A stretch of 63,241 bases of DNA, filler included, from Stramenopiles sp. TOSAG23-3 (GCA_900128585.1; 10 parts of 10 records of this genome joined end to end with filler, not necessarily neighbours in it); one strand, 5' to 3'; positions 7,621 to 32,349 are shown, counted from the whole stretch's first letter. Notes: generated from the sequence alone by a model not told the origin. Made by a program: numbers and translations.

Positions 7621-7810
7621 AAAGAAAAAAAAAGGAGATTTACTGTCTTTTTCTTAGTTATATACCAACGTACGGAAGATTTGTTAAATGTTGCTTTGAA
7701 CGAATTTTAAACAATTAATTTGAAGCAAGGGCCAGAACAATTAACGAAAGAGGAGGGAAAGAGGGACAAAAAGAGAAGGAACGATCAATTTTGCTTCTAA
7801 TCTATACTCT

Positions 7811-10120: not shown

Positions 10121-10374
10121 AGGGGATTGCGCCCACTCGTAAAATTATTCGTACAAGATATATATGTGTCATTACTTGTAATAATTCTTGAACTTATCAA
10201 ACAGTTTATTATTCAGATTCACTTTCGCGGTAAATATAAAGACGATAAATTAATTACCAAGTACTTAATTTAAATGCTCTTAAAAACAGCCAATTTTCTT
10301 GCTTTAAGAATTCGATACTTTTTCTTACAATCAAAGTATCTTGCCACCCGAACACTTCATTCATGTATGCGTGG

Positions 10375-11001
10375 TCAATTTATTTTTTTGTCTGTCTTGA
10401 CTACTACATCTCCATGAGCTGTGTGGCTCAAAAACGTATTCCATCCCAGCGATGTAAAAATCGTTGGCAGCACACGAAGGTGGGACGGCACGAAAAGAAA
10501 GTTTAGCATATTTACAGGCACCCACACGGCAGAGGATGCAACAAAAAGTTTGAAAAGATCTGCTTTACAGCGATGTTCAATTTCTCCAACAACGGCACCT
10601 TTATCGAACGGCGCGCCATCCAGAACAAATGATAGCAAACTCTCGGAAGTAACCGTGTAGGTCAACGCCAACGCATTGAAAGGAATTGCAACTGCGGCAT
10701 GGTTTGCAATCACTTTAATTGTCGCATTACGGACGGAATTCCCAGGAAACCATCTATCTAACCGCCGGAACCAAAACAGAAACGTGGGTGCCATTATCAA
10801 CCCACTAAATGTTCCCATGCAAAATGTTCTCCTGAAATCAAAATCTTCCTCTCCTGTTGAGCTCATACCCTTAATCTTAATCGTCTGCGCTAAAAGATCG
10901 CCAATCACCATCACACCCGCCCCGGTAATGGACGAGGTCAACAACGGCTTCTGTTTTATCAAACGTTGGTACCTTTGCCACATAACACTGAAACTGATCA
11001 A
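10375..11001 (-). CDS. Mpv17/PMP22 family membrane protein
   Basis: KPLLTSSITGAGVMVIGDLLAQ, DFRRTF, W.RRLDRWFPG, VWVPVNMLNFLFVP.HLRV...WNTFLS. ATG of MWQRY at ~10983 is the likely start. Confidence 0.9.
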   Translation of the reverse strand: MISFSVMWQRYQRLIKQKPLLTSSITGAGVMVIGDLLAQTIKIKGMSSTGEEDFDFRRTFCMGTFSGLIMAPTFLFWFRRLDRWFPGNSVRNATIKVIANHAAVAIPFNALALTYTVTSESLLSFVLDGAPFDKGAVVGEIEHRCKADLFKLFVASSAVWVPVNMLNFLFVPSHLRVLPTIFTSLGWNTFLSHTAHGDVVVKTDKKIN

Positions 11002-12378
11002 TACAATGATGCGATCAAGGCCAAAAGACGACCTCTGGTGAACTGTTTAACTCTTACGTTTTATTCTTGGCTATTTTCACACTTCCTCCTTCAGTGTTCT
11101 TCTCCTCGCTCAGCAGAGCTCCTCGCCACCAATTTATAATAATAATAAACACACAAAACACAACTCGCGTTAATAATTATTTTGATAAAAAATATGATGT
11201 GATCTTTTTTTTTCAATTTTATTTTTGAATACATACACACAGTATATAAATCAACACTGTATTCATGTTAACATACTATTATATACACACAGCAAAGGGA
11301 CGAAATATTCGGATTCAAGTATCTTTGGCGCGGAATTGAAAAATGGCAAACGACTTTGTGTTAACTATTTGAGATGAAGAGATCTTTATGAAAAAAAAAT
11401 CGTGATCAAAAATTTAAAGCCCCAAGAGTGGTTTAAGATACACAATATTGTGCCTGTACCCATCATTTAACAGATTTTACAAATGAAGAAGTGTTTGTGT
11501 TGATGGAGTTTGGTCCAAATCGTCCATTTCACAAAAAATTGTCCCTAGGAACCACATTTCCAAGTCAATTGAGGGCAAACAATTTGCAAACGTTCGTTCA
11601 AGACCGAACATCGTGGGCGGAACAATTGCTCGTTCTAAACTTATGCAGTTAGGTGTCCTCTTTGCTTTCATTTGTCATTTTCTGGCGGAACGCTTCCACA
11701 TTTGCAAAATCGAGTCGGATTTTTTTTCGCGCCAAGGACACCGAACACTTTATTGAACAGGTGTCTATCATAAAATTTTACTTACACAAATTTACATCGA
11801 TCGAATAGCATTAGTCTATTATATTATTTTATTATTTTGGAGAATGGGCTAGTAGGACTACGTACGCCTCGTAATATTAATATTACTCGTAAATATCCAA
11901 TCTGTTATTGTGCATTATCATGCTGTTTTCCTTCGATCATCTTCAAGCCGCACAGCCGCACCCGCTAAAAAGCCGCCACAATACATCCCAGAGGCCGAAG
12001 CCCGAAGCTCGAAGCGCTGTTGGATCATGTTTTATGTAATATAATAATACTCGTAGTCGTCGTCTACCTTATCCAAAACATTTAAGTTTATTCTGTTCAA
12101 ATAGTACACTGCACAACATGAAAACAACGATTTTTCAAATCGATCAGAACAACAACAACTACTTATTTTTTGAATTAGAAGATATTACGCCTACTATAAA
12201 TATTAGGATAAAAGCATAGGATATAAAACAACAACTTTTTTGCGTGTCACAGAGAAGCTAACAATTTTGGTGAGTAAACACAGGCAACTTCAGGCAAAAG
12301 AAAGTCTTGAACCCGTCCACCAAACACTATTCTATTGTTTTTTCCACCTGCTATGTTCCAAAGGTAAATTGGTTGTAA

Positions 12379-13344
12379 ATGTTAAGAACGATTTTCTTGC
12401 TCGGTGTGGCCTTCTCAACGTCGCCTTCTGCTACGTTCCAGCCTGTAGAAGTCGGTGCTCGGACGGGCGATATTCTAACAGGGGCGGCTCTGACTTCGTA
12501 CCCGAATATGTCCCGCCCCATATTTGTCTCCTTCTCACCACGGCTCATCTACTACAATAATTTTTTGAGTGACGCCGAAGTTGAATATTTCAAGCACGCA
12601 GCCACGACACTGCGAGGGTGGAACAGTAGCGAGACGGGTTTAGTATCAGTATACTTTGAGAACGATGCGATTCACAATAACCCGATCGTAAATACGGTGG
12701 AAATGCGAATCGCAGCGGTCACCGGTATAGCCCCACACACAGACCAAGAGCCTTTGTGCATCCACAGGATTGTTGCGAGGCCCAACGATCCAAACAGAGT
12801 CGATGAAATCCACCACGACAAAGTTAACAAGCCCTTTACTACAGTGACGGTGTTGGTGTACTTGAGCGACGTCGAGGAGGGGGGAGAGACAATATTTCCC
12901 TGTCACATCGACCCAGAAACCAAAACACTTTGCAAAGACTCGTTCTACGGCGGGGCGCGCTGGCACAATGGCAAGCGGACGGTCGTAGAAGGACAAACAC
13001 ACTGGCAAGGGCAGGACAAGTCTTCTCGGAGACGCTCAAAGGTGGAAAAAGAAATGGCACTGTTGAAGCGAAGGGCCAATGAGTTTTGCGCGCAAGAGGA
13101 CAATAAATCAAGGGTGGAGGAGGCCTCTCTGTACGACAGGCCAAAAGGCATGAAAGTCTCCCCAAAGAAAGGGAGCGCAATTATATTCTGGCATGATATG
13201 CCCGGTCAAAATGGGGTAGGGGTCGGCGACGCCCTGGCGTGGCACACGGGATGCAAAGTAAGCAAGGGCGTGAAATGGACGATGCAGAAATTCTCGGAAG
13301 TGCCTCGAATGTCCCGCGCACGAACGTCTCAAAGGCTCCCGTAA
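12379..13344 (+). CDS. Prolyl 4-hydroxylase-like 2OG-Fe(II) oxygenase, signal peptide
   Basis: Hydrophobic N-terminus; SPRLIYYNNFLSDAE, HxD motif (HHD), TVLVYLSDVEEGGETIFP, PKKGSAIIF, HTGCKVSKGVKW. Confidence 0.88.
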   Translation: MLRTIFLLGVAFSTSPSATFQPVEVGARTGDILTGAALTSYPNMSRPIFVSFSPRLIYYNNFLSDAEVEYFKHAATTLRGWNSSETGLVSVYFENDAIHNNPIVNTVEMRIAAVTGIAPHTDQEPLCIHRIVARPNDPNRVDEIHHDKVNKPFTTVTVLVYLSDVEEGGETIFPCHIDPETKTLCKDSFYGGARWHNGKRTVVEGQTHWQGQDKSSRRRSKVEKEMALLKRRANEFCAQEDNKSRVEEASLYDRPKGMKVSPKKGSAIIFWHDMPGQNGVGVGDALAWHTGCKVSKGVKWTMQKFSEVPRMSRARTSQRLP

Positions 13345-13445
13345 TGGTATTTTTAATTAAAAAAACAAAAAATTGTCTGTTATTTAAGTACTTAAAATTT
13401 ATTATCTTTATAAACTGTGAACTCATCTCTGCTCCTGAGATTTTA

Positions 13446-15128
13446 CTAAAACAACATTCCCAATTTTAAAAAATTTAAAAGAACAAATACATTGAGTCGT
13501 TTTTCTGCCGAAGATTCCTCTTCAATGCCTTTTTCCAAACGCTTCTTTCTCTTCTGTTTTTGTTTGTCCACCCATCGACCCGCATTTATCTCCGTTCCAT
13601 CATCCAATGTGATGGAATAGTTCTGAGGTACATGCCCATCCCATTTCTTGCCAGGATTCTTCCTTTCGTATTCCAATTCATATCTAAAAATCGCATCGAC
13701 GTATTCCTCTAGTTTAATTTGGCGTATTTTTTCCCATAATATTCCAATTTTATTGAGTTGTTTTTCTGCCGGTGATCCCTCTTCAATACGTTTTTCCAAA
13801 CGCTTCCTTCTCATCACTTTTTGATACTTTACCCAATTACCCACGTTTGCCTCCGTTCCATCATCCAATGTGACGGAATAGCTTGTAGGTACATGCCCAT
13901 CCCATTTCTTGCCAGGATTCCCTTTTTCGATTTTCTCTTTGTATCCACGAATTGCAGCAATGTACTCCTCCAATTCAATTTTCCGTGCCATAACAACTTA
14001 CCATTGTATACCTATTTTATTGAGTCGTTTTTCTGCCGAAGATTCCTCTTCAATGCCTTTTTCCAAACGCTTCTTTCTCTTCCGTTTTTGAGTTGAAATC
14101 CAACTACCTACATTTACCAGGATACCATTTTCCAATGTAATGGAATAGTTCTGGGGTACACGTCCATCCCACTCTTTTTCAGGATACTTTGTTTCCTGTT
14201 TCTTTTTGTATTCAAGAATTAAATTAATGTACATGTCTAATCCAATATGTACTCCCCATAATAGACCCATTTCATTGAGCTGCTGTTCCTCAAATGATTC
14301 CTTTTCAATTCCACGTTCAATACGTTTCTTTCTTCTTTGTTTTATATGGCTCACCCAAATCCCCACGTTTGCCTTTGTTCCGTCGTCCAATGTGACGGAA
14401 TATTTATAAGGCACATTCCCATTCCACTTTTTAGCTCCATGCTCCTTTTTATACTCCTTTACAAGTTGAAGCATTTTTTCAGAGGAACATTTGATATTCT
14501 TCTTTCTTGATCTTAAGTTCCATGAAACTCCAATCGTAGTTAATTCCATTTCCACAGGTGATTCCTCTTCAATACCTGCTGCACGTCGTTTCTTTCTTTT
14601 CTGTTTTTGTGTGCCCACCCAAAACCCCACGTTTGCCACGGTCCCGTCGTCCAACGTGGCAGAATAGTTCCCAGGTACACGTCCATCCCATTCTTTTCCA
14701 GGATGATTCCTTTGGTATTCCACTTTATATTTAACAATTTCTTCGATGTGCTCCTTTTCTGTAATGGTGCGTTTCGCAACTTTAAGTTTATTCCATAATA
14801 TTCCAATTTTATTGAGTTGTTTTTCTGCTGGTGATTCCTCTTTAATACCTTTTTCCAAACGTTTCTTTCTCTTCATTTTCTGATTGTGTACCCATGCACC
14901 CACGTTTGCCTCTGTTCCATCTTCCAATGTGACGGAATAGGCCGTAGGCACATGACCATTCCACTCTCCCCCCCCATGCTCCTCCTTGTACTCTTTCACA
15001 AGTTGAAACATTGTCTCCCATTTAATGGCGCGTTTCGCAACTTTAAGTTTATTCCATAATATTCCTATCTCATCGAGTCGTTTTTCTGCTGGTGATTCCT
15101 CTTTAATACCTTTTTCCAAACGTTTCTT
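13446..15128 (-). pseudogene. Tandem helicase-associated (HA, PF03457-like) domain repeat protein; in-frame TAA at 13998-14000; 5'-partial
   Basis: At least 6 full and 1 partial ~80-aa repeats with the pattern L.EYK..HG...W.G.VP..YS.TL.DGT..NVG.WV..QK..RKKR......AEK.L..IGI.W. The two track ORFs are in one frame (TGG TAA GTT GTT ATG). Much more AT-rich than neighbouring genes. Confidence 0.75.
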
Positions 15129-15727
15129 TCNNNNNNNNNNNNNNNNNNNNNNNNNNNNNNNNNNNNNNNNNNNNTTAATTAATTAANNNNNNNNNNNNNN
15201 NNNNNNNNNNNNNNNNNNNNNNNNNNNNNNATTATGCTTGCAAATAATCCTTGCTGTTTACTACGCAGTGCTCACAATAATTTTGACGATGTTTTGTCAT
15301 ATCCTTTCTCGTATCTTGTTTCTTTTTTGAAGGATATTTAATAATAAACAACAGGAAGAACACCACAATAATAGACGAAACTATAGGACTATAATAATAT
15401 TAATAACACGCACAAATAAACGACGAGCCGAAAAAAAAAAAATTTTTGAAATAAAAATAATAAAATTATTTGATTTTTTTTTTTTTTATACTACTATTAT
15501 TACTACCGTACGAGGTACGAACGAACTCATTTCGACATTACCACAAAGACGAAGAGAAGCAAGGACCGACCTGGTTATTATTGAAATGTTTGTTAAATGG
15601 AATAATTTCTTTAATTTAATTTTTAATATATATACAGTTATTCAATAACATATGACGTGTACAGGTTTGTTTTGAAACGATTTTTTTGTATCTATCTATT
15701 GTACTTGATACAAGAACGCATTGATAT

Positions 15728-17266
15728 ATGTCCGTGCCGAATAACCAAGCCCGGCCCCAGCGACGGGACTCACTGGAGGGGTACCATGTCATCAAACGGA
15801 TTGAATTTTTGGGTAGGACGGTGCCGATACTGTGCCAAAATCAGAACGGCCCGTGCCCTCTGCTGGCAATATGCAATGTGCTTTTGCTGCGAGGTCACAT
15901 ACAAGTTCCTGCTGGGTTTGATCGCATCACCATAGAGGATGTGATACAGCTAATTGCAAATAGAATTATAGAGTCCAATACGGGCGACCAGTCCAACGTT
16001 GACCTTCGGAAAAACATAGACGACGTCATGTCGCTGCTTCCACGGCTGCAGAATGGCCTGGACGTAAACGTAAGGTATCGTCACAGCAAAGACTATGAGT
16101 TTACACAAGAAATTGCCATCTTCGACATACTAGGAATAAACCTTGTTCATGGTTGGTTGTACGACCCAGCGAACACGGCGGCGAAGAACGCGCTCGGCGC
16201 AAAGAGCTACAACGAGTTGGTCGAAAAAATAATAAATTTCGACTCGGCGAAATCCGATTACTTGAAGAAGAAGCAGGAGGGGTCCAAGAGCGATGAAGGT
16301 TCCAAAGGCGACGGGGCAGATGAAGAAGGCGGTGCCGGGGCAAAAGTAGGGGAAGAAGGTAGTAAATGCGGCCCAGAGGCTGAAGGGAAAATTGGGGAAG
16401 GCGCCGAGCGGGGCGCGGACAGATCTGGAAAAGAGGAAGAGGCATGTACTGGCACTGTGGGGCTCAGAGAGAAAGTTGCGGACGTGGACCAGGCCTTGCC
16501 TTGTGCGAAAACCGAAGATGGCGAGACTGCCCAGGAAACAGAAAAAGAGGATTTAGACCCAGAATTAATGCAGGCATTGCTGCTTAGCCGAGAGGCCTCG
16601 ATGTTGGAAACGTGGAAAGAGGAGAAAATCACCGTTGAAATAAATGGGGGAGAAGTGCGACTGGCCCAGCTCGCCGAAGATGCGAACACCATCCAAGAAT
16701 TTTTTAAAACAACGGCGAGCCAGTTGACCGTGCACGGGCTTGTAAAGCTGCACGAAGAAGTCAGGCCGCGGGAACTTTGCGTCTTTTTTCGTAACAACCA
16801 TTTCAGCACTTTGTTCAAAAAAGGTCACCAGGTGTACCTGCTGCTTACCGATCTGGGGTACCAGCAGCAGCAGGGCCTGGTGTGGGAGCTCTTGAATGAC
16901 ATCGACGGCAACACCACCTTGGTGGATTCCAGATTCGTGGAATCCTCCGGGCTGGCTTCCACGAGCAACATATACAACGCTGCGGTTGAGTTCGGGAGCT
17001 CATTTGGGCAAAAGGCAGCATCACCGTCGCGCCAAAGCAGCGAAGAGAACGACATGAGGCTGGCGATGCAGCTGCAAGCGCAGGAAGATGAACTGCAAAG
17101 GCAGCAACGCAGCGCGCACGGGGCACGGCAGCCTCCCGAAGCGGGTGGCAACGTCTTGGCACAGCAACAAGCGGAATACGAACGGTTAAAGAAGCAGCAT
17201 ATGGCGCAGCAGGCCGCAAATAACAAACGGGCGGGGAAGAAGAAACCCTCTTGTGTGATAAGCTAA
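15728..17266 (+). CDS. MINDY-1/2 family deubiquitinase (FAM63) with MIU-like motif and CaaX box
   Basis: Catalytic CQNQNGPCPLLAICNVLLL, LVHGWLYDP, FFRNNHFSTL, LLTDLGY...VWELL. DMRLAMQLQAQE is MIU-like; C-terminus is CVIS. Confidence 0.93.
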   Translation: MSVPNNQARPQRRDSLEGYHVIKRIEFLGRTVPILCQNQNGPCPLLAICNVLLLRGHIQVPAGFDRITIEDVIQLIANRIIESNTGDQSNVDLRKNIDDVMSLLPRLQNGLDVNVRYRHSKDYEFTQEIAIFDILGINLVHGWLYDPANTAAKNALGAKSYNELVEKIINFDSAKSDYLKKKQEGSKSDEGSKGDGADEEGGAGAKVGEEGSKCGPEAEGKIGEGAERGADRSGKEEEACTGTVGLREKVADVDQALPCAKTEDGETAQETEKEDLDPELMQALLLSREASMLETWKEEKITVEINGGEVRLAQLAEDANTIQEFFKTTASQLTVHGLVKLHEEVRPRELCVFFRNNHFSTLFKKGHQVYLLLTDLGYQQQQGLVWELLNDIDGNTTLVDSRFVESSGLASTSNIYNAAVEFGSSFGQKAASPSRQSSEENDMRLAMQLQAQEDELQRQQRSAHGARQPPEAGGNVLAQQQAEYERLKKQHMAQQAANNKRAGKKKPSCVIS

Positions 17267-17522
17267 GCTTCGTAAATTTCTTAAATTACTCAGGTTTTAC
17301 GCGTAACTTACTCGTATGCCGAAGAGAACACAACACATTCAGGACACTTTAAAAAAATTAAAAATAAGGAATAAAATATAAAAAAGAACTCGTTCTTTAT
17401 GAAAAAATCAAAATAATGGCGGTCATTTAAGTGTATTTAATTTTTTTTATTAAAAGACAAAGTTATACTGGTAAAAAAACTTGTCATCTCGCAATTTCGC
17501 TCGCTTTACATAAATCAACGTC

Positions 17523-20500
17523 TCACTCACCACGCTTTTCGTTCTCCCAGTCGCGGAGAATGCTCTTAAAGTTGAACGCCCCCGCCTGCTTGTTTTCGAT
17601 GGAAAGGGCGTCGCGCACAACTTCTAAAGCTTTGTTCAGCTGTGGCAAATTGTTCTTCTTATGGTCCGATGGAGAAACCTCGACGGATATGTCGGGGGAC
17701 ACACCGCAGTTTTCGATGCCATACCCTTTCCCGATGCCGTAATAGCCGCAGCTTGGATGCGCCACCTCTGTTCCGTCCACTAGCTTCGACGATTGTGAGA
17801 TCCCCACGACACCCCCCCACGTCCGTGTGCCTACAATGGTGCCGAGCCCGTACGCGCGGAAGGCATGAGCGCACACATCCGCATCGCTGCACGATTCTTC
17901 ATCAACTAGCAGCACTATGACCTGTTTTCGAGACGGAAGGTGAATCGGGAAGGGCTCCGGTCGCCCGTAGCGTGGAACTTCTATTCCGACGCACTTGGTA
18001 TTAAGTTTTTCCAACAGTAAATGGGATATAGAACCACCCCCATTCCCACGAATATCTACGATGATTGCATCCCGCTGCGACTCGACTAGAAAGCAACGGG
18101 ACCATTGGATGTACGCAACCGTGTCCATGTTGGGAACGTGAACGTATCCGCACTTGTTTCTGCTCTTTTCGTGAACGTAATTTGTCAGCTCCGCGACGCT
18201 GTCCTTGTACCGAATGAAGTCATCGACGTCTTTGGACACGCACCGGACACGGAATACTTTAAGCTCAGGACCCAAGCCAGCACCAACAGTTTGCTGTTGC
18301 CCGCCTTCTGTTTCTTTCTTTTGATGGTCTTCTCCACCGTTCCGCTTACCGCCTTTCCCTTTCCTTCGTTTGCCTCCCTTTTTCCCTTTTCCAGGATTCT
18401 CTTCCGCCCATGCGGTTTTGTCCTTTCCCCGCTTGGATTTACCCTTGCCCTTCCCATTCGCCGGAGCCTTTTTTTTTTGCTTCTTCTGGCGCAGTACTCC
18501 AAGGTACACCTCTTTACCGGCCATCCCCCTCAGCGCATAGGGCAACGAATAGTCTGTGGTAAGTTCGCGGTGGTTTACGGAAAATATTACGTCTCCAGGC
18601 TTGATGCCGATCCCAGGCCGGGCCAGGGGACCACAGTTTCTCAACGACCACGAATCGCCTTTGTAAAGTTTAACGATTCTGTTCCCTTTGATAGTTTTTC
18701 CCCCGTCGTTCATCGTGCATTCTTCCACATCGATTCCCAGGAACCCACGGTCGTTGTTCCCCTCTGAGCATTTTGCAAACGCGTCAAAGTCGCCTTTGTT
18801 CTCGTACGCATGCGAGCACCGCAACTCTGACAGCAGTTCGAGGAGAAGGTCTGAAAACTCTTCCCTTGTGTTGATTCTCTCCAGCAAAGGCGCGTACATG
18901 GCATAAATTCCTTTCCAGTCAAGGCCGCCCTTGCCAAATATTTCGGACTTGGTTACCTGCCACGCTTCCGCAAACATTTGCCGCCATTCCTCCCGTGGGA
19001 CAATTTCGACCCGCACACGGTCCTCAATGTTAATTTGCCCACTGACTTTGCGGCCACCCGCCCCCTCGTCCTCGCTGTCATCGTCGCTGCTGTCCCCTGA
19101 GCCGTCCTTGTCAAACATTTTTCGAATCCCGTACGCACTCACGATTCGCTCTCCATCTTCAACCTTGAACACCAACCCAGTGCTGTAGTCCATGGAGTAC
19201 TGGACGCCAACAATGTTTCGCCCACCGAAGAGAGATTCCTTGCACTTGTCTATGTTGTAACACGCCAGGGTGCCGGTTCCGTTCGCCTCCTCTTCTTCAT
19301 CACTATCATAGGCGCAGGATTCTTTGTTCTTTCCATCCATGACCAAGTCTCGGACGTACGTCACTTTGTTCGGCGAAACACACTGCAGCTGTCTAATTTT
19401 AAACCCGCTGGTGTTCAAGTTGGGGAACATTCCAACCCGGGACCCAATGCCGTTGAAGTCAATGACTGGTTGCTTTGTCGAGTAATTGGTCGGGTCATCT
19501 TCGCTGTCCGACCCGGAGCTGCCCTCACCTTCGTCAACCCAGCCGTCTTCCTCGCTGCCGTCGGAACTGCTGCTGTCCTCCTCGGATTCGCTGGACTCGT
19601 CGTCATCGTCGTCTTCCTCTGACGAAGAATCGCCGGCCGCTGGCCGTTCCGGCTTTCGCAGAAACGGCGAAGGGGTGTTGTTCTGCAAGGTTGCAAACAT
19701 GACGGTGTCGGAGGACGGAAACGTAATGTGCCCATCCCACACGTCGTCCTCGACAGGGCAGTATCGTCGGTTTGAGAGGAAGAATAGGTACCGCCCCGAT
19801 GGGTCGAACGCGGGGCTACTGTCCATGTAATACGACGGGGCCGTGACGTTGTGCACTTTTCCCGTCTTTACATTGGCAACCCTAATTATTGACGACATCA
19901 GCGTGTTTTTGTAGCAGTACCCCAAGTAATTCCCGCAAGGGCTGAACGTAAGGTCGTCCAAACCGTCCTCGTACAGGGCTTTGTCAATGTACTTCAAACT
20001 GCACTTCGCCAATTTGGACTGGCTTCCGGAAGCGGGGTACCGAACCAACAGGAGTTCTTCGCGGTTGTTGATCACGGCCAGCGCGTCGTGCTTGGGGGAC
20101 GGCACCATGTGCCAGGGCCTGCCAAGAGGGTCTAATTCGTCTAGCTTCTTGGACAATTTGTGCCCACCGTTGTCAAAGGTCAGCGAGACGGATTTGTTGG
20201 CAACGTTGTATTTGAAAGGCGCTGCCGCGTTCTCCTCGCCCCCCCGGTCGGCCGGTTTCTTTTTCGCCTTCTTTGCATTTTTCTCCTTCATGGCGCGAGC
20301 TTTATCCTTTTCTACATCCTCAACGTATTTTGGAAACTCCCTGCTGTCGTATTCATTGTCCGCTTTTCGGACCGTGGGAGACTCGAACAGCTCGATCACA
20401 GGGGCGTCGAAATCGGCGCGGTAGCTTACAGCAGCGATTCTTCCACACCGCAAGTATGTTGCTTTGCCATAGCGAACGCCTTGAAGGTCGCCAATCTGTA

Positions 20501-21641
20501 TCGCTGGTCCCCCAAACAGGGGCATTTCAAAGAGCCGCCCGCGAACCGTGGCGCAGAGCAAGTGTCCGTCTGGGTGGACCGTTGCCGCCCGGAAAAACTC
20601 GCAGGGTTCATCCAATGTCCGCCGCATAGCCGTTTGGCCAAAACTGTTCCAGGCCATGTCGACTTTTCTCTGCAACGACTGGCTTGAGCCGGACAAGGCG
20701 CCTGGAAGGTTCAACACGTAGAGGTCTCCGCCCGACTGATAAATCAACTGCTTGCTCTCGGAACATATGGCCAACTTTCGCGCGTAAAAGTCCGTGTGGT
20801 CAGTCAACTTTTCTACAACTTCTGCTCCGTCTTTGAGGAACGCTGCCAAATCGAACGCGTACACGTTTCCCGGGGCATTGTCTTCTGGATCTGCTATAAA
20901 GTAAATGCACTGTGTCGCTTCACAAAGTTGGGGCGACCCAACGTTGAACTCCCGGCAGACGCGCACAAAGTCTCGTTCGCCCGCCGCGTTCACCGATAGC
21001 CAAAGTTGCCCGATGTTCCCCCCCTTGTAGTGCTTCCACTCAGCAAGGTGGGGGTCTCGCGTGTGCCGGCCTATAACGACTGCCCCGCTTTTCCCGGGCT
21101 GGTACACCGACGCCTCCCCGTACTCCACGGGCGCAAGGGATCCAGTCGTTATGTCGAGGGCTGACACCGCTACGGTCGACGGGCGAACCCCGGTCGTCTG
21201 TTGCCGCAGCACGTACAGCTTGCGCGGGTCACCCCGGTCGAAATCCAAGACGCGGAGGTGGTCGTCCCCGCAAAATGTTAGCTGCTTGGGCGGTCCCCCG
21301 CAGAAGGGCACTAAATAAACTTCGCTTTCCCCATCTGCCGCAGACGAAAATGCGACAATGTTGCCGTCCCTCGAGATTGCGACGGATTCGCACTCCCCGC
21401 AAGTCGTAAGCCGCCGACAGGCGTTCGGAGCCCCAGACTGAAGCTGGTCGATAACAAACACGTCGTCTTCAGATATAAACCCTACTTTGCCGTTGCGTAT
21501 GGCAGGACATCGGTAGTAGCCTTGGCAACCCGTGCTCAGCCCCTCACTAGAACCTCGCGATAGACTCAGTTGCTGGAGCAACGTCTCCAAGTCCGCTGAT
21601 GCGTCTACGCTGTTCACCGACGTTTTCAACCGATTCAACAT
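17523..21641 (-). CDS. Tricorn protease (peptidase S41B): beta-propellers, C1, PDZ-like and catalytic C2 domains
   Basis: GYYRCPAI...FISEDDVF, WKHYKGG..GQLW, LTDHTDFYAR, DSSPAFDPSGRYLFFLSNR, EWRQMFAEAW, ELRCSHAY (catalytic His), GYVHVPNM, IIVDIRGNGGG, EESCSDADV (catalytic Ser), GTRTWGGVVGI, IENCGVSPDI. Confidence 0.93.
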   Translation of the reverse strand: MLNRLKTSVNSVDASADLETLLQQLSLSRGSSEGLSTGCQGYYRCPAIRNGKVGFISEDDVFVIDQLQSGAPNACRRLTTCGECESVAISRDGNIVAFSSAADGESEVYLVPFCGGPPKQLTFCGDDHLRVLDFDRGDPRKLYVLRQQTTGVRPSTVAVSALDITTGSLAPVEYGEASVYQPGKSGAVVIGRHTRDPHLAEWKHYKGGNIGQLWLSVNAAGERDFVRVCREFNVGSPQLCEATQCIYFIADPEDNAPGNVYAFDLAAFLKDGAEVVEKLTDHTDFYARKLAICSESKQLIYQSGGDLYVLNLPGALSGSSQSLQRKVDMAWNSFGQTAMRRTLDEPCEFFRAATVHPDGHLLCATVRGRLFEMPLFGGPAIQIGDLQGVRYGKATYLRCGRIAAVSYRADFDAPVIELFESPTVRKADNEYDSREFPKYVEDVEKDKARAMKEKNAKKAKKKPADRGGEENAAAPFKYNVANKSVSLTFDNGGHKLSKKLDELDPLGRPWHMVPSPKHDALAVINNREELLLVRYPASGSQSKLAKCSLKYIDKALYEDGLDDLTFSPCGNYLGYCYKNTLMSSIIRVANVKTGKVHNVTAPSYYMDSSPAFDPSGRYLFFLSNRRYCPVEDDVWDGHITFPSSDTVMFATLQNNTPSPFLRKPERPAAGDSSSEEDDDDDESSESEEDSSSSDGSEEDGWVDEGEGSSGSDSEDDPTNYSTKQPVIDFNGIGSRVGMFPNLNTSGFKIRQLQCVSPNKVTYVRDLVMDGKNKESCAYDSDEEEEANGTGTLACYNIDKCKESLFGGRNIVGVQYSMDYSTGLVFKVEDGERIVSAYGIRKMFDKDGSGDSSDDDSEDEGAGGRKVSGQINIEDRVRVEIVPREEWRQMFAEAWQVTKSEIFGKGGLDWKGIYAMYAPLLERINTREEFSDLLLELLSELRCSHAYENKGDFDAFAKCSEGNNDRGFLGIDVEECTMNDGGKTIKGNRIVKLYKGDSWSLRNCGPLARPGIGIKPGDVIFSVNHRELTTDYSLPYALRGMAGKEVYLGVLRQKKQKKKAPANGKGKGKSKRGKDKTAWAEENPGKGKKGGKRRKGKGGKRNGGEDHQKKETEGGQQQTVGAGLGPELKVFRVRCVSKDVDDFIRYKDSVAELTNYVHEKSRNKCGYVHVPNMDTVAYIQWSRCFLVESQRDAIIVDIRGNGGGSISHLLLEKLNTKCVGIEVPRYGRPEPFPIHLPSRKQVIVLLVDEESCSDADVCAHAFRAYGLGTIVGTRTWGGVVGISQSSKLVDGTEVAHPSCGYYGIGKGYGIENCGVSPDISVEVSPSDHKKNNLPQLNKALEVVRDALSIENKQAGAFNFKSILRDWENEKRGE

Positions 21642-22145
21642 GGAAAGAAAAGAAAGAACTACGACGGTAGTAAATATATTATTATTGAAACCAAGGAAGC
21701 AACTAGCACAATAGGCACATCAGAGAAAGATAGAATATATAAAAAAATTCACTCCAATCCCCAAAAGGGAAATGCAACAAACACTAGACGACTATTCTGA
21801 ATATCAATATTTAAATTATAAACAATTTATATATAATCAATCTGTACCAAAGTACCAAAGTATAATTATTTGCTGCTTCAAGACTCAAGACTCCTCTCAC
21901 TTCTTCTTCTTTATTACCTTGGTGGTATTTCAATTTAAAATGATTTCCGTCCCCTCCATCATCCAACCTTATTATTATAGTCATATATAAAACCCTAACT
22001 TGTTATTTTAATTTAATTTTTTATATGATTTTATTTTTTCTCTCCTCTGCTGGTGAATTGGTTGGGTGGACGACGACGAGAAGAGTTATATTATTTAAAC
22101 TTATTATTATAGTAGTGTCTAGTTATTAAAATATAGAGGAAGGAA

Positions 22146-22177
22146 ACTGAGGACTAACTGAGGACTGAGGACTGAGG
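22146..22177 (+). repeat. Short tandem ACTGAGG repeat (4 copies) in the divergent intergenic region
   Basis: actgagg actaactgagg actgagg actgagg read directly. Confidence 0.7.
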
Positions 22178-22325
22178 ATGCCGCAGCAGAAAAGAGAGGT
22201 GGGGGTGGTTAAGCACAATTGATCATGTGAAAGAGAAGAAAGACCTTTCGTAGTGTTTAAATTCAGAGACGTTTTCATTCCTTTTCTTTCTGCCTCAACA
22301 TCAATATACAGACGTATTTTATAGG

Positions 22326-22740
22326 ATGTCGTGCCATCATCATACGTCTGCGTCCGATTTGGCTTCACAGAGCAACGTCGATACGATTCGACAGACCCAT
22401 ATCTCTCTGGACCTAAGGGCGGACTTTGAGAAGGAACAGTTAATAGGGCATGCTGTTATTAAATTTGTAGTTGTTGCGGACAAAGCGACAGAAATATGCC
22501 TGGACACCCACTCCCTGAACGTGAAAAGTGTCCGAATCGTAGACTCGGGGGAGCCTGCTACCTTTCGCCTCTCCGACCCGCACAAGGTCTTCGGTCGCGC
22601 GCTTGTGGTTGAAGTCCCGGGCGCTCTTCAGGGAAAGGGGTCGGAAGTCACCGTAGCCATCGAGTACGAGACGACCAAAGCAGGCGGGGCGATCCAATGG
22701 CTGCCACCGGCCCAAACCGAGGGAAAAAAGCACCCCTTCC
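22326..22740 (+). CDS. LTA4H: Leukotriene A4 hydrolase-like M1 aminopeptidase, 3'-partial
   Basis: D.ASQSN....THISLDLRADF..EQLIG, LDTHSLNVKSV, FGRALVV, IEYETT....AIQWLPPAQTEGKKHPF matches the LTA4H N-domain. Truncated by the contig end. Confidence 0.87.
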
Positions 22741-22842
22741 NNNNNNNNNNNNNNNNNNNNNNNNNNNNNNNNNNNNNNNNNNNNTTAATTAATTAANNNN
22801 NNNNNNNNNNNNNNNNNNNNNNNNNNNNNNNNNNNNNNNNCC

Positions 22843-25407
22843 CAGGCGTCATTTTCATCCACACGACAACGTCCATGTATATCGGTTGCTTCGACCGGAC
22901 GGCTTCTTGCACCTGGCGGCTTCTTTGAAATAAGAAAAGAGTATACGTTCCATTACTACAACAAGCCGAACGTCAAGACAAAGGCCCAAAGTTTTTCGAA
23001 CCAACCGTACCGCTGCCTTGCCAATGGAATTTTTCGGTCCCAGCCAGCGGCGTACCGCTATGCCGAAGTGCACGGCTGCCCAGAGCCCACGAAAAAAGTC
23101 TACGAAGTGTACCAAAATGCCTGCAGGGCCGAAATGGTGAACCTTTTCAACGATGGGAACTGGGTGCCGATGTACGAGCAGCTTCTCGTGTTGGTAAACC
23201 TCGCCGGCTTGAGCTACAACGCCCAAATCTCTCAGATTTTAACATCCATCTGCGGGCAGCTGCGGCAGCTGTCCCTGGAGGCAGCCACCCTTTCCAAGGT
23301 TATGGATCGCATTCTGCACCACCACGGAATAAACCAAAACCTCCTGGAGCTGATGGAGACAAACGTACATTTCCAGTTCAAATCCTTTTACAAACGAAAC
23401 GCCGCCCTGGTCCAAGGGGGTGGATTGGGCCGCAGCAGTACCTTCGCTGCCCTGAAACTACCCATCAGGGCCCTGCTTGACAGTCTGTTTGACATCCGCA
23501 CTAGAGAGCTGATCCTGTCTGACGATTCGGTCCGGTACCTGCGCGACATTGGCCGGATGTATAGAACTGGTGAGCTGTCTTTGGCCGCCGACGCGAAAGA
23601 GCTGTTCGTAACTTTGAACGTTTTGGTCGAAAAATCGGTCGCAAAAGTGACGGACGCAAGGCCAAAGGCAAGCCCCGTCAATGTGCCAAAAACGCCGAGG
23701 CTTGACGTGGACAAGGAGACCAACCACAACATTGAAATCAATCGCTTCCCGGCCAAGATTGCTCGAGAAGCTGTTGTCTGCCAGTACTTTGCAGACTCCC
23801 ACATGGATACGACCATGGCAGAAATCTACAAAAACTTGTTGACTGAGCCGCTGTACCCGAACCCGTTCCCGCACATCACCAGGACCCTGCAAGGGGCGTG
23901 GGCCCGCAACCAACTGTGGATCCAGAGCGACGACAGCATCGAAGAGGAGTTGTTTTCGACCCCGACCACCTGCCTGGAGCGGCATCTGGAAAGCCAGCCG
24001 ACCTGTTACGTGGAAAGCTGCGGGAAAAAAGATGAGATGATATTTGGGGTTCACAATGCCTTGTCCTGCGCAGACCCCCACCTGCTGGACAAGCTGTTCG
24101 ACCATCTGCCGATCTTGCAGAACAGCACCGACGCATCTGTGCACATGAAGAACAACACGGAGCACATCTGCACTGCCCTGACCCGTGACACCGTAATAGA
24201 GTCTAGGATCACGTCCTCCCAGCAAGGCGGCCTGCCGAGCTTCATAGAGTGCCACGAACATTACCCGATTGAAGGGGCAGTCAAGCGCAGTGCCATCCGT
24301 CTGTTCGTGGAGCATATCATGATGTACGTGAAATGGTTCCAGGAGGGCACGGCCAACATCGTGCGGGCCTTGTCTACCGGTGCGTGCGGGGACGAGAGTA
24401 TATTTACAATGAAAAGCAACCGGATGAATTTCAATATCGCCCAGGTCACAAAAAGTGTCGCCACCGTCCGAAGGGAGCTCCTGAAGGCCGCTGCGGACCA
24501 GCATGGTATTTGCATGCATGCTTTTGTGAAGCTTGGACCGCCGTTCCCGAACGATAAGTGGATATATCTCCGCAAATGGTTTATTTTGCATTGGAGAGAC
24601 CCTAAAACGGAATGCATTGAACACCACTCGCAGGACCTTTGTCAGGCAATATACGAAGACGCGTTCTTTGACCAGACTGTCGCGGAGATTGCCATGGAAG
24701 CGCAATTAGACCCGAACAAGTTCGGTCAAGGTTATGAAAACCCAGCCAATCATTCCACGGCCATGTACGAAAAGTATGCGCTCGCAACTCGAACGGAGGT
24801 CGCTCGCTGCTGGAAAGTGGGAAACCTCGTCGGCGCCTACCACGCACTTCTTCCGTATGCCCTGGCGCACGTCGAAGACGAGGAAATTATGCTGGATTTA
24901 GTCCGCATGCTGCGGAGTCCAGCACAAAAGTTGACGCACTTTCAAGTGGAAAATTGCGTTTTGCAGCATTTGATTACTGGCTTTTCCAGCAAAGACAGTG
25001 ACGATTCTGCGAAAGACAAAATTTCGTCCGCAACAATCAAGCGTCAGCTTGTGCAGCACCGCCAAGAAGTCTTGACGGTGTTAGAAGATGTAGGGGACGT
25101 CTTCGTGTCGGGCTCGCTAATCGAAATGAACTCAAAATTGTGCCAAGTGGAAAGGTACATAGGTAGCAACGACGCCACGAAAGTCGCCGACTCGGTAGAA
25201 ATGCTGAAAGAGTGTGTGGCGTATATGAAAGGCATAGCAGCCTGTATTGCGGACGCCGTTCACGCGAACTGTCCGCACATCAATGATGTCATTGAACGTT
25301 GCGTCGACGAGTATGAAGAATCGCTTCATGTTACTGCAAAAGATAGTGGCTTTCACGTGGACGTGGATCATATGGAGAGCCAAATCGATACCTACGACGA
25401 CATTTAA
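22843..25407 (+). CDS. Hypothetical protein, 5'-partial, with internal repeat and a Dpy-30/RIIa-like docking motif
   Basis: Frame open from the contig edge (22843) to 25407. QYFADSHMDTTMAEIYKNLLTEPLYPNPFPHITRTL resembles a dimerization/docking helix pair. Confidence 0.7.
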   Translation, partial: QASFSSTRQRPCISVASTGRLLAPGGFFEIRKEYTFHYYNKPNVKTKAQSFSNQPYRCLANGIFRSQPAAYRYAEVHGCPEPTKKVYEVYQNACRAEMVNLFNDGNWVPMYEQLLVLVNLAGLSYNAQISQILTSICGQLRQLSLEAATLSKVMDRILHHHGINQNLLELMETNVHFQFKSFYKRNAALVQGGGLGRSSTFAALKLPIRALLDSLFDIRTRELILSDDSVRYLRDIGRMYRTGELSLAADAKELFVTLNVLVEKSVAKVTDARPKASPVNVPKTPRLDVDKETNHNIEINRFPAKIAREAVVCQYFADSHMDTTMAEIYKNLLTEPLYPNPFPHITRTLQGAWARNQLWIQSDDSIEEELFSTPTTCLERHLESQPTCYVESCGKKDEMIFGVHNALSCADPHLLDKLFDHLPILQNSTDASVHMKNNTEHICTALTRDTVIESRITSSQQGGLPSFIECHEHYPIEGAVKRSAIRLFVEHIMMYVKWFQEGTANIVRALSTGACGDESIFTMKSNRMNFNIAQVTKSVATVRRELLKAAADQHGICMHAFVKLGPPFPNDKWIYLRKWFILHWRDPKTECIEHHSQDLCQAIYEDAFFDQTVAEIAMEAQLDPNKFGQGYENPANHSTAMYEKYALATRTEVARCWKVGNLVGAYHALLPYALAHVEDEEIMLDLVRMLRSPAQKLTHFQVENCVLQHLITGFSSKDSDDSAKDKISSATIKRQLVQHRQEVLTVLEDVGDVFVSGSLIEMNSKLCQVERYIGSNDATKVADSVEMLKECVAYMKGIAACIADAVHANCPHINDVIERCVDEYEESLHVTAKDSGFHVDVDHMESQIDTYDDI

Positions 25408-30339: not shown

Positions 30340-31230
30340 CTNNNNNNNNNNNNNNNNNNNNNNNNNNNNNNNNNNNNNNNNNNNNTTAATTAATTAANNN
30401 NNNNNNNNNNNNNNNNNNNNNNNNNNNNNNNNNNNNNNNNNTAATTTTAAAAACAAAAAATTGGGCTGTTGTATTTAAAAGTAAAAAATTAAAATTTATC
30501 TTTTCCGAATATGACAAAGATCCGAAAATTTTGAGTCCATGCCATTGTCACTGCTACAGCCCGTACATCTGCACCACCTCGTGCTTCTTTTGTGGTTATG
30601 GCAAGTGTACAGTTCCATAGTCTAAATATCGTCTGTCTGTCTTGAGAGAGAGAGAGTGAAGAAAGGAACGAACAGGTGATATCAATGCTGGTCAGCTGAC
30701 GTTGTTCTTTAGTTTAGCACCGCACATCGTTAGATGGGTGCTTCTTGTTGTTTAAAACAGACGACTGGGAGGGAGGTAATTTCAGGCGCTGTGTGATATA
30801 TGTATTCGATAACGAATAATAACAACAACAACACCGCTAGAACGCTATAGCTATTCTTATTAAACTTCCACGCAGCAACACAACGACGCACATGTTGTTT
30901 TCCTATTCTACTTAACAGCGTCTTCTAAAAATATATTACCAAGAAGACACCAGCGTTCACAACCAAGAAAGCCCTATTACGACTGTTTAGCATTGCTGGC
31001 ATTCCATTTTTTATACTACTGCTGTTTATGAACGTCGTTGTTTACTCCGATTTTTTGAACGGAGTCTAGTAACAGGAGAGCGCTTCGGTACGATCTATCC
31101 AGTGTTCCCGTCTTAAAAATTAAATGCCTCTATGTTCATAAACGGTAAGAGGTACCTACAGAAACTAACACAATATCTGAGCATAGAAATTCTTTACAGC
31201 AACTAATTACTTTCAGGTTACAAAAATACA

Positions 31231-32291: not shown

Positions 32292-32349
32292 AACAAGAAA
32301 ATTGGCTGTTATTTAATTACTTAAATACAACAGCCAATTTTCTTTGTTT
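32292..32349. repeat. Palindromic dimer of the dispersed AAAACAAGAAAATTGGCTGTTATTTAA repeat
   Basis: aacaagaaaattggctgttatttaa-ttac-ttaaatacaacagccaattttctttgtt forms an imperfect hairpin. Confidence 0.85.

Follow-up and report, generated by a model that had tools for sequence, protein, structure and literature searches.

An open reading frame (ORF) of 1372 codons in the Stramenopiles sp. TOSAG23-3 assembly is quite likely a genuine nuclear gene of a marine protist, whose product would be a catalytically competent tricorn (S41B-type) peptidase from a eukaryote-specific branch of that family. The ORF lies on the minus strand at positions 17523-21641 of the window, by which is meant the whole 63,241-nucleotide stretch of DNA that was analysed. 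It is intronless, as a sequence-only reading of this DNA had reported, and runs from ATG to stop without an internal stop.

The tricorn contig and its neighbours

Twenty runs of N, 1062 letters in all, interrupt the window; 18 of them are paired as N44-TTAATTAATTAA-N44 six-frame-stop linkers, and the window is a chain of separate contigs of ~7.5 kb each that these linkers join, so there is no physical linkage across the whole window and most of the neighbour ‘context’ within it is not linkage. The sequence-only reading had placed tricorn on a gap-free contig with MINDY and LTA4H-like genes; this fails for the window. The true contig carries MINDY in full, tricorn, and a 138-codon N-terminal stub of the LTA4H-type gene. 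The features of this contig are listed below, where L001 is an independent 17.2-kb metagenome contig.

15131-15230, unstranded: artificial six-frame-stop linker at the left boundary, joining unrelated contigs (N runs and flanks)
15231-22740 (7510 bp), unstranded: true tricorn-bearing contig, with linkers of the above type on both sides (N runs and flanks)
15728-17266, plus strand: MINDY-family deubiquitinase gene, 512 aa, complete, tail-to-tail with tricorn (Pfam MINDY_DUB, 1.7e-86)
17267-17522, unstranded: convergent AT-rich intergenic spacer (GC 0.285), with the 3' ends of MINDY and tricorn inside
17523-21641, minus strand: intronless tricorn-type protease ORF, 1372 aa
21642-22325, unstranded: divergent AT-rich spacer (GC 0.329) between tricorn and the LTA4H-type gene, in a head-to-head order also found in L001
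22326-22740, plus strand: start of an LTA4H-type M1 aminopeptidase gene, 138 N-terminal codons (Peptidase_M1_N, 3.3e-06), cut by the contig end
22741-22840, unstranded: artificial six-frame-stop linker at the right boundary, with a separate contig beyond (the L001 match ends exactly at 22740)

MINDY is a eukaryote-type marker on tricorn's own contig; its nearest Atlas clusters carry MINDY_DUB in 30 of 30 cases, with 100% Eukaryota for each of the three listed. The LTA4H-type gene is complete in L001 (629 aa, with Peptidase_M1_N, Peptidase_M1 and Leuk-A4-hydro_C) and is of the ordinary eukaryotic type, its nearest relatives being eukaryotic LTA4H-like proteins. The divergent spacer presumably holds the promoters of this gene and of tricorn. 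A large ORF at 23068-25407, which gave no Pfam match, sits on a different contig. The GC3 of tricorn, 0.647, falls within the range of its physically linked neighbours (0.573-0.705), in keeping with the earlier remark on a common GC pattern. Elsewhere, an HA-domain gene block has a GC3 of 0.361, unlike the rest of the window.

Independent assemblies also show tricorn on one contig with eukaryote-type genes. L001 matches 22740-17326 at 98.86% and 17337-15335 at 98.51%, and its gene row consists of SPX, the LTA4H-type peptidase, tricorn, MINDY, CRAL/TRIO and calpain. In addition, other metagenome contigs bridge the MINDY-tricorn junction, among them a 2364-nt contig from run X2 that covers 15508-17758, and run X4 gave depth in 30 of 30 bins. 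Of the MINDY-tricorn-LTA4H junctions that the sequence-only reading had wanted checked, the first is thus bridged by the X2 contig, and both recur in the gene order of L001. As for the transcript support that it had also looked to, RNA-library contigs lie on the ORF, from which neither strand nor level is readable and which come from libraries that can contain DNA: metatranscriptome contigs of X16 lie piecewise along 17443-20628 and pass the tricorn stop codon by 80 nt, and a 666-nt contig of the oligo-dT library X19, at 17474-18140, covers the 3' end and passes the stop codon by 49 nt.

Domain order and catalytic residues

Pfam models for Tricorn_C1 (7.8e-15, residues 882-937), PDZ_Tricorn (5.6e-14, 985-1058) and Peptidase_S41 (2.8e-21, 1163-1320) match the ORF. 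A profile of the eukaryotic clade described below matches Thermoplasma acidophilum tricorn, which belongs to MEROPS S41B (PDB 1k32, 1n6d-f; 1045-residue chain 1k32_A), with an E-value of 2.2e-170, and is collinear with chain residues 19-323, 376-534, 538-805 and 827-1036. Therefore, both propellers, C1, PDZ and C2 are present in the same order in the two proteins, as the sequence-only reading had it. The following features are on the minus strand, and ‘six-bladed’ and ‘seven-bladed’ denote a match to 1k32_A, not a count of blades.

20637-21518: first beta-propeller (six-bladed type), ~residues 42-335 (1k32_A chain 19-323, E 1.3e-44)
19032-20606: second beta-propeller (seven-bladed type), ~residues 346-870 (1k32_A chain 376-534, 538-805)
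19494-19640: acidic Ser/Asp/Glu-rich insert, residues 668-716, past the second propeller's last conserved strands (pLDDT < 50)
18831-18998: C1 domain, residues 882-937, with the His motif after it (Pfam Tricorn_C1)
18813-18815 and 18810-18812: codons of S943 and H944, after C1
18468-18689: PDZ domain, residues 985-1058 (Pfam PDZ_Tricorn)
18267-18494: Lys/Gly/Arg-rich basic PDZ-C2 linker, residues 1050-1125 (charge and length)
17682-18155: C2 / Peptidase_S41 catalytic domain, residues 1163-1320 (Pfam; 1k32_A chain 827-1034, E 7.1e-48)
18033-18035, 17979-17981 and 17886-17888: C2 codons of G1203, E1221 and S1252 (predicted nucleophile)
17883-17885 and 17712-17714: C2 codons of D1253 and E1310

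Thermoplasma tricorn is the best PDB match of the ORF by fold as well as by sequence. An AlphaFold model covering residues 1-880 only is all-beta (mean pLDDT 75.5, pTM 0.54, 152 of 880 residues below 50), and 1k32_A heads its PDB matches (E 4.1e-31 over 861 columns; runner-up 5.8e-13), with a low global TM of 0.37 and an identity of 17% for this modelled N-terminal part. The first propeller is modelled as all-beta with block pLDDT mostly 80-95, and the second is broken by low-confidence inserts at ~426-498 and ~669-715. The ORF is ~300 residues longer than Thermoplasma tricorn, and the extra length comprises an N-terminal extension of ~40 residues, the second-propeller insert, the acidic insert (interval 662-727: 64 residues, net charge -22) and the basic PDZ-C2 linker (interval between anchors 1047 and 1132: 84 residues, net charge +19, 32% K+R).

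The motifs singled out in the sequence-only reading, ELRCSHAY with H944 and SCSDAD with S1252, are intact. The catalytic set of Thermoplasma tricorn consists of Ser965 and His746, with Ser745 and Glu1023 in support, and its oxyanion-hole positions are Gly918 and Asp966; these are matched by S1252, H944, S943 and E1310 (H944 being aligned with His746 in the 1k32_A alignment) and by G1203 and D1253. Across the 15 eukaryotic-clade and 46 prokaryotic rows compared, H944, S1252, E1310 and G1203 are conserved in all 15 and all 46 (His thus occupies its column in 61 of 61 rows), D1253 in 15 and 42, and S943 in 14 and 41. No clade row of the 15 departs from the ORF in the Ser, His, Glu or oxyanion-hole columns, although pairwise identities to the ORF are just 27-56%, and this argues for selection on catalysis.

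The positions that set specificity in Thermoplasma tricorn, with Asp936 in S1 and Arg131/Arg132 anchoring the substrate C-terminus, differ in the ORF: the D936 equivalent is Glu (E1221), R130 is kept, and V131 replaces the second Arg (the R132 equivalent). These residues also vary among the prokaryotic rows, which have the Asp in 27 of 46 cases and Arg at the first anchor position in 8 of 46, so they are typical of the Thermoplasma enzyme and not of the family.

A residue scan found no hydrophobic run longer than 2 in residues 1-60 of the ORF, and no transmembrane-like window was found in the whole protein (best 19-residue Kyte-Doolittle mean, 0.97), which agrees with the earlier claim that a signal peptide is absent.

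The eukaryotic tricorn clade

The tricorn family has 5751 representatives at E <= 0.001, which are overwhelmingly prokaryotic and mostly ~1050-1150 aa long, as the bacterial rows are. A FastTree analysis of 87 rows, including all 26 best-scoring rows not pre-labelled eukaryotic, placed the ORF in a 16-row clade with support of 99; two rows not pre-labelled eukaryotic, P0199 and P0215, fell inside it, one of the two being Telonema. A 15-row group was fixed after this result (P0205 moved out; P0199 and Telonema moved in), and in an unrooted IQ-TREE LG+C20 tree of these 15 and 46 prokaryotic rows (61 rows, 1068 columns) it is split from the rest by a branch with an SH-aLRT of 100, a value to be read as branch support and not as an independent test, since the group was fixed after the first tree. 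The same branch was recovered from the propeller half (98) and the C-terminal half (99) of the alignment.

Seven of the 15 clade rows are eukaryote-labelled (choanoflagellate, dinoflagellate, labyrinthulomycete, Telonema), under names that include Salpingoeca, Polykrikos, Effrenium, Hondaea and Telonema, and eight are unlabelled metagenome proteins; three of the labelled rows come from transcriptomes, in which prey or contaminant eukaryotes are possible. Among the members, Hondaea fermentalgiana GBG27183.1 (‘Tricorn protease-like’) and unnamed Effrenium voratum proteins, CAJ1389700.1 being one of several, are encoded on genomic contigs 460 kb and 1.02 Mb long, and they have the inserts and catalytic residues of the ORF at 27-28% identity to it. 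Eukaryotic tricorn homologs have therefore already been deposited and auto-annotated, and a literature search found no paper that discusses the Hondaea or Effrenium proteins.

Because the insert columns were left out of the trees, the inserts that the clade members have in common are separate evidence for the clade. Every one of the 15 clade rows carries a net negative charge in the acidic interval (-6 to -23) and a net charge of +6 to +23 over the 42-149 residues of its PDZ-C2 interval, whereas 42 of the 46 prokaryotic rows have a PDZ-C2 interval of 8-28 residues and the other four one of 41, 42, 56 and 67. The N-termini of 12 of the 15 reach the conserved propeller start within ~70 residues; the remaining three start later and look truncated.

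The top-scoring non-eukaryotic relatives are bacterial homologs (for instance the Chloroflexota, Streptomyces and Terriglobia rows) annotated as ‘S41 family peptidase’ or ‘PDZ domain-containing protein’, which are collinear with the ORF over the 1068 columns and identical to it in the catalytic columns, but which are only 35-41% identical overall and lie on the opposite side of the SH-aLRT 100 branch. No close prokaryotic donor was found: among 1.84 billion representatives, the best one outside the clade reaches 41% identity. The sequence-only reading of an old, acquired tricorn thus stands as regards age, but a broad eukaryotic clade, which it had said would, if vertically inherited, make the gene unremarkable, is largely what the trees and labels recover, and the position of the ORF within it indicates no special acquisition by the TOSAG23-3 genome.

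Alternatives, origin and proposed role

That the TOSAG23-3 protist lineage alone received the gene recently, by horizontal transfer from a bacterium or an archaeon, is very improbable; this is the narrow sense of what the sequence-only reading inferred. The prokaryotic weight of the family and the lack of an intron in the tricorn gene would fit such a transfer, but the adjoining eukaryote-type genes are also single ORFs, so intron absence is not peculiar to tricorn, and the distance to the best prokaryotic representative, the nesting among labelled eukaryotes from several major groups, the clade-wide inserts and the neighbour-like GC3 all speak against it. An artefact of assembly or binning, in which a eukaryotic assembly took in a bacterial contig or was joined chimerically, is barely credible: the window does concatenate unlinked contigs, one gene block in it (HA-domain) is compositionally apart, and contigs of other runs diverge from it near the contig ends (15244-15284 and 22551), yet MINDY and tricorn occupy one 7.5-kb contig, the X2 contig bridges their junction, and L001 repeats the gene order with four further eukaryote-type genes.

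Loss of peptidase function, which would leave an expressed propeller/PDZ scaffold with its fold kept, might be proposed from the long disordered inserts and the one lost substrate-anchoring Arg, but the invariance of the catalytic and oxyanion-hole columns across a divergent clade makes it a very slight prospect. A real eukaryotic gene with another job, as a digestive or organellar peptidase or as a nuclear enzyme directed by the linker, is a more serious candidate, though still unlikely. It would suit the labelled holders, for the most part marine phagotrophs, mixotrophs or osmotrophs, the Lys/Arg-rich linker, which may resemble a nuclear-localisation or nucleic-acid-binding stretch, and specificity residues unlike those of Thermoplasma; the hydrophilic N-terminus, the missing transmembrane-like window and the short N-termini of most clade members count against it.

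The best reading of the origin is a single ancient event behind the whole eukaryotic clade. In its somewhat favoured form, the gene would have passed early from a prokaryote to a eukaryote and then been lost or spread between eukaryotes; descent from the last eukaryotic common ancestor, with many subsequent losses, is possible but less likely, and several transfers seem doubtful. The trees are unrooted and their archaeal sampling is thin (one row, labelled Nitrosotalea, with Thermoplasma and Asgard sequences missing), so a closer archaeal relative may exist and transfer may have run in either direction.

In PMC12502532, Thermoplasma tricorn is described as a protein of 121 kDa which assembles into a 720-kDa homohexamer and cleaves peptides of 7-9 residues released by the proteasome. 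The ORF differs in having a eukaryotic host; by homology with the Thermoplasma enzyme, its product would probably form a ring-shaped oligomer. Oligopeptides may enter through the propeller channel and reach the C1/C2 active site, where S1252 would attack with H944 as the base, S943 and E1310 would orient H944, and the oxyanion hole would come from the G1203 and D1253 backbone; the short products would then be finished by aminopeptidases. Tricorn works with aminopeptidase factors, namely F1 and, from family M1, F2/F3. The gene head-to-head with tricorn is itself that of an M1 aminopeptidase, of the LTA4H type, and the flanks of L002, L003 and L005 are too short to show this adjacency elsewhere.

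Because both a signal peptide and a hydrophobic segment are absent, the site of action is most likely the cytosol, or the cytosol and nucleus, where the enzyme would act on proteasome products, a post-proteasomal role that is proposed purely by analogy. Its proposed functional analogue, TPPII, is a large self-compartmentalising cytosolic post-proteasome peptidase of eukaryotes, as characterised in PMC2933905 and PMC1586193, the second of which assigns it a subtilisin-type catalytic domain, a fold unrelated to tricorn.

The TOSAG23-3 ORF is thus best read as encoding an old, putatively catalytically competent, non-secreted peptidase of eukaryotic tricorn type. Within an otherwise prokaryotic family, these comparisons place it in a wider eukaryotic branch that has drawn little notice.

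The tricorn gene and its physical contig

The tricorn gene is a single open frame that runs uninterrupted from ATG to stop over 1372 codons (17523..21641, minus strand), as the sequence-only reading had described it. The three Pfam families by which that reading proposed to check the assignment are all present, in tricorn order, and the catalytic His and Ser motifs that it quoted are both found exactly as written.

Pfam families in the tricorn protein
Residues 882-937: Tricorn_C1, E 7.8e-15
Residues 985-1058: PDZ_Tricorn, E 5.6e-14
Residues 1163-1320: Peptidase_S41, E 2.8e-21

The top solved structure by sequence was the Thermoplasma tricorn protease (chain 1k32_A, E 2.2e-67). A profile built from the 15 closest eukaryote-type sequences matched this chain at E 2.2e-170 in four collinear stretches (chain positions 19-323, 376-534, 538-805 and 827-1036 of 1045), and therefore both propellers are present too. 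An AlphaFold model of residues 1-880, made from a 44-row alignment, was all-beta (mean pLDDT 75.5, pTM 0.54), with 1k32_A as its best match in the Protein Data Bank (E 4.1e-31 over 861 columns; second-best match 5.8e-13); its global TM-score to 1k32_A was just 0.37, so the mutual placement of the two propellers is poorly modelled. When catalytic residues were placed from the 1k32_A sequence alignment and their codons checked, S1252, H944, S943 and E1310 fell at what we take to be Ser965, His746, Ser745 and Glu1023 of the Thermoplasma enzyme, and G1203 and D1253 at what we presume to be its oxyanion-hole residues Gly918 and Asp966. By every criterion testable here from sequence, the gene is a member of the tricorn family.

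The window contains 1062 N in 20 runs, 18 of which form nine identical linker units, each made of TTAATTAATTAA (twelve bases) between two stretches of 44 N. TTAATTAATTAA contains a stop in each of the six reading frames; the unit is a spacer for concatenating separate contigs.

N runs in the window
7521-7620, 15131-15230, 22741-22840: linkers 1-3
30342-30441, 37941-38040, 45526-45625: linkers 4-6
53111-53210, 60694-60793, 61968-62067: linkers 7-9
42146-42236 and 44253-44431: ordinary scaffold gaps within one block

The blocks between linkers measure 7510, 7510, 7501, 7499, 7485, 7485 and 7483 bp and then 1174 bp, a series that fits listed contigs and not a chromosome. The nine linkers and the block sizes therefore make the window a concatenation of separate contigs, and the practical warning is that, in such a linker-joined pseudomolecule, neighbourhood across linkers is meaningless and any argument built on it void. 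The gap-free contig claimed for the gene does not describe the window, with its N runs and linker-joined blocks, but it does hold for the 7.5-kb piece that carries tricorn, since linkers at both sides delimit its physical contig as 15231..22740.

Genes beside tricorn on its contig
15728..17266 (+): MINDY deubiquitinase gene, Pfam 1.7e-86
22326..22740 (+): N-terminus of an M1 peptidase gene, 415 bases, Peptidase_M1_N 3.3e-06

A large ORF at 23068..25407 (+, 779 aa) sits on a contig other than that of tricorn and has no Pfam match at E <= 0.01; another at 7811-10120 (+, 769 aa) has none at E <= 0.001. Also on block 7621-15130 is the gene for a 373-aa helicase-associated (HA) domain protein (13998-15119, minus strand; Pfam 3.7e-19). 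Its GC3 is 0.361, vs 0.48-0.70 for the 15 other ORFs measured, and the block may stem from another genomic compartment or a second organism in the assembly. An Rfam search of the window gave no match, and a tRNA search found none.

Residence among eukaryotic genes

An independent metagenome contig of 17,206 bp (L001), found via the protein, matches the window at 98.86% from 22740 to 17326 and at 98.51% from 17337 to 15335, and extends past the tricorn contig on both sides.

Gene order on L001
Gene 1: SPX-domain protein
Gene 2: complete 629-aa LTA4H-type M1 peptidase (Peptidase_M1_N, Peptidase_M1, Leuk-A4-hydro_C), head-to-head with tricorn
Gene 3: tricorn
Gene 4: MINDY, tail-to-tail with tricorn
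Gene 5: CRAL/TRIO protein
Gene 6: 1206-aa calpain-type protein

The setting among eukaryotic genes claimed from sequence is thus repeated independently, with the SPX, LTA4H-type, MINDY, CRAL/TRIO and calpain genes in linkage. The organism-named relatives of the LTA4H-type protein are eukaryotic, and all 30 of the nearest Atlas clusters of MINDY carry MINDY_DUB, the three listed being 100% Eukaryota. On the MINDY side, the junction that had been singled out for checking is crossed by a 2364-nt contig from metagenome run X2 (15508-17758); a 3710-nt contig covers 17769-21478, and run X4 has depth in all 30 bins. In composition the gene resembles its neighbours, as had been claimed: its GC3 of 0.647 lies within the range of the five linked genes (0.573-0.705), and the spacers flanking it have a GC of 0.28-0.33. 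A bacterial contaminant or a chimeric join is very unlikely given L001, the identity of the neighbours, the other runs and this composition, and tricorn is a resident, compositionally integrated eukaryotic gene.

Transcript support, also proposed as a check, came from RNA libraries kept as contigs, which show presence in those libraries and neither strand nor level: metatranscriptome run X16 has contigs, in pieces, on 17443-20628, and in the oligo-dT library X19 a 666-nt contig covers 17474-18140, where the gene has its 3' end. Stretches of the tricorn contig bare of X16 or X19 contigs carry no weight, as such data say nothing on absence. The gene is probably expressed. The claimed absence of a signal peptide also stood, since hydrophobic runs in the N-terminal 60 residues do not exceed a length of 2, and the highest Kyte-Doolittle mean of any 19-residue window in the whole protein is 0.97.

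Several features of the contig and its surroundings are worth recording. Four of the six genes on L001 (175-16940) concern proteolysis or ubiquitin (LTA4H-type M1 aminopeptidase, tricorn, MINDY and calpain-type protease). Archaeal tricorn has M1-family aminopeptidase factors as partners; the M1 gene beside tricorn here is an ordinary eukaryotic LTA4H-type enzyme. Among proteins with a name, the nearest to it are those of a cluster containing a fragment from Bicosta minor (57%) and one from Stephanoeca diplocostata (54%), which would suggest an acanthoecid-choanoflagellate-like host, by a small margin over the many other eukaryotes at about 50%; uninterrupted long ORFs are not known to be typical of choanoflagellate genomes.

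In the tricorn-MINDY spacer, L001 has about 170 extra bases (8616-8786) relative to the window, parts of which match other blocks at 63164-63241, 42279-42315, 32289-32355 and 13361-13399 (90-100% over 37-78 bases), so that the insert looks like a short interspersed intergenic repeat common to these contigs. On the left, the outermost ~100 bases of the tricorn contig (15231-15334) are unmatched in L001 and contigs of three other runs diverge from the window at 15244-15284; towards the right end, short high-depth contigs start at 22551, and the sequence that precedes them is unlike the window (22551-22740). Both ends look repeat-bounded or common to related species. Near the 5' end of tricorn, contigs of X2, X16 and X19 fit the window only over the 50 bases 21449-21498, with unlike sequence on both sides, and their source is probably a paralogue or a related tricorn in another organism.

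A eukaryote-type clade and its possible origins

A word-indexed search gave 198 matches among 7999 scored candidates, and an exhaustive HMMER search (query residues 173-1372, 1.84 billion representatives, E <= 0.001) gave 5751. The majority of the latter are about 1050-1150 residues long, like the bacterial rows, the best of these being 41% identical, and a minority are longer. A homolog search seeded with an alignment was swamped by low-complexity words (40 matches, the Salpingoeca sequence missed) and was excluded from the conclusions.

Eukaryote-type relatives and their sources
P0044: Salpingoeca infusionum, transcriptome
P0201: Polykrikos kofoidii, transcriptome
P0240 and paralogues: Effrenium voratum, genome contig of 1.02 Mb
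P0206: Hondaea fermentalgiana, deposited as 'Tricorn protease-like', genome contig of 460 kb
P0215 / P0513: Telonema subtile, transcriptome
P0337 (cluster of P0188): EukProt entry without a name

The protein studied here is also in EukProt, and an identical protein is called 'tricorn protease' by JGI. A further candidate lead is a cluster in the ESM Atlas, of 1603-aa proteins with the label Eukaryota/Chlorophyta.

Only columns occupied in 70% of rows or more entered the trees, which kept the clade-specific inserts out of them. The FastTree phylogeny (87 rows, 1075 columns) combined 14 rows pre-labelled as eukaryote-type by length or name, 26 other representatives of P0190-P0215, 9 further proteins and 38 loci, of which 33 come from genomes titled with an organism name. 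It contained a 16-row clade (support 99) made up of 13 of the 14 pre-labelled rows, P0199, P0215 (later found to be from Telonema) and L005, a copy of P0004; the remaining pre-labelled row, P0205, was placed among bacteria and carries a soil-metagenome label. The row set was then revised: P0205 was moved to the prokaryotic rows and P0199 to the eukaryote group, P0215 was replaced by its longer isoform P0513, L005 was left out, and 25 prokaryotic rows were removed for computing time. With IQ-TREE (LG+C20 PMSF, quick search, 61 rows, 1068 columns), the phylogeny with protist homologs that had been proposed as a check gave a single eukaryote-type clade, in that the 15 rows are split from all others by a branch with SH-aLRT 100 in an unrooted tree with one archaeal row; as the eukaryote group was fixed after the first tree had been seen, this value is a branch support and no independent test. 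When the alignment was split, support was 98 for the propeller half (510 columns) and 99 for the C1-PDZ-C2 half (393 columns).

Eight of the 15 clade rows carry no label, and the labelled members span opisthokonts (a choanoflagellate), alveolates, stramenopiles and Telonemia. Within the clade, this protein groups with P0003 (56-57% identical; 61% over the columns kept for the tree) and P0004 (41%), both of them marine metagenome proteins without a label. The trio joins Hondaea with support 95, a placement that is unsure because Hondaea has a long branch, and the two dinoflagellates pair with support 100. The P0004-type relative (L002 3-3809, L003 330-4448, L005 776-4039) belongs to a very AT-rich organism and has long Asn runs at the same insert positions as this protein; downstream of it on L002 lie a 230-aa ORF of unknown kind and then an RCC1-repeat gene.

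With regard to origin, no prokaryotic group is the specific sister of the clade in these trees, where archaea are represented by one row, labelled Nitrosotalea, without Thermoplasma or Asgard. An endosymbiotic source was considered and rejected: the cyanobacterial/melainabacterial rows (L050 and L019, with L020 and L026 in the FastTree phylogeny) group with other bacteria, away from the clade, and no alphaproteobacterial sister was seen in the trees. Transfer by a giant virus was also considered, and viral contigs scanned with the clade alignment gave 21 pattern matches, none of which encodes a relative; this is weak negative evidence. It is possible, though we think it improbable, that the eukaryote-type tricorn is old (early eukaryote, possibly last common ancestor), with its acidic insert and basic NLS-like linker, and survives in scattered marine protists as a post-proteasomal giant peptidase that replaces TPPII or works alongside it.

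Conserved catalysis, charged inserts and implications

Across the clade, identities to this protein are just 27-56%. Even so, all 15 rows keep the His, the nucleophilic Ser, the Glu and both oxyanion-hole residues (Gly and Asp), and 14 keep the helper Ser, a pattern that speaks for selection on catalysis. Conservation does not extend to residues that tune the Thermoplasma enzyme. This protein has Glu in place of the S1 Asp, a position with Asp or Glu in 8 of 15 clade rows, and Val in place of the second anchoring Arg; the S1 and anchoring positions are variable among prokaryotic rows too.

The PDZ-to-C2 interval (anchors 1047-1132) is 42-149 residues long with a net charge of +6 to +23 in the 15 clade rows; it is 8-28 residues long in 42 of 46 prokaryotic rows, the exceptions being 41, 42, 56 and 67. 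The interval 662-727, after the second propeller, has a net charge of -6 to -23 in 15/15 clade rows.

Charged inserts in this protein
Residues 668-716: acidic insert, Ser/Asp/Glu-rich, modelled at pLDDT <50
Residues 1050-1125: basic insert, Lys/Gly/Arg-rich

One may speculate that the basic linker has a role in nuclear localisation, or that the acidic and basic inserts make electrostatic contact.

By homology, the protein would form a ring-shaped oligomer in which peptides thread via the propeller channel to a Ser-His site between C1 and C2, with the PDZ domain and a C-terminal anchor helping to position the substrate. Thermoplasma tricorn is described, in a passage of one paper, as a 121-kDa subunit that forms a 720-kDa hexamer and cuts proteasome products of 7-9 residues (PMC12502532). 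Chances seem about even that the eukaryotic protein has the same general role, in the cytosol or in the cytosol and nucleus, a location suggested by the lack of a targeting signal together with the conserved catalytic set.

Public databases already contain and automatically annotate such proteins (Hondaea, Effrenium and this one), and the gene itself is therefore no discovery; the novelty lies in recognising one eukaryote-type clade with inserts of its own. In the literature since 2008 on 'tricorn protease', at the level of abstract openings and a full-text search, no full-length eukaryotic tricorn is described, and supplementary protease tables of protist genomes may list such genes. A fungal 'tricorn N-terminal domain' protein mentioned in one paper is only a 42-kDa propeller protein (PMC12502532). 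Another paper states that the ancestral eukaryote lost its tricorn peptidases and that only eukaryotes have TPP peptidases (PMC1586193). Against that stated loss stands the tricorn described here, intact, with its catalytic residues conserved and amid eukaryote-type genes. If the early origin were true, tricorn would not simply have been lost when eukaryotes arose, and the LTA4H-type M1, MINDY and calpain genes would be a hint of co-regulated protein turnover at this locus, reminiscent of how tricorn and M1-type factors pair in archaea. The clade makes it testable whether eukaryotes have more than one solution for the post-proteasome step, whether tricorn and TPPII are mutually exclusive, and what job the clade-specific charged inserts perform.
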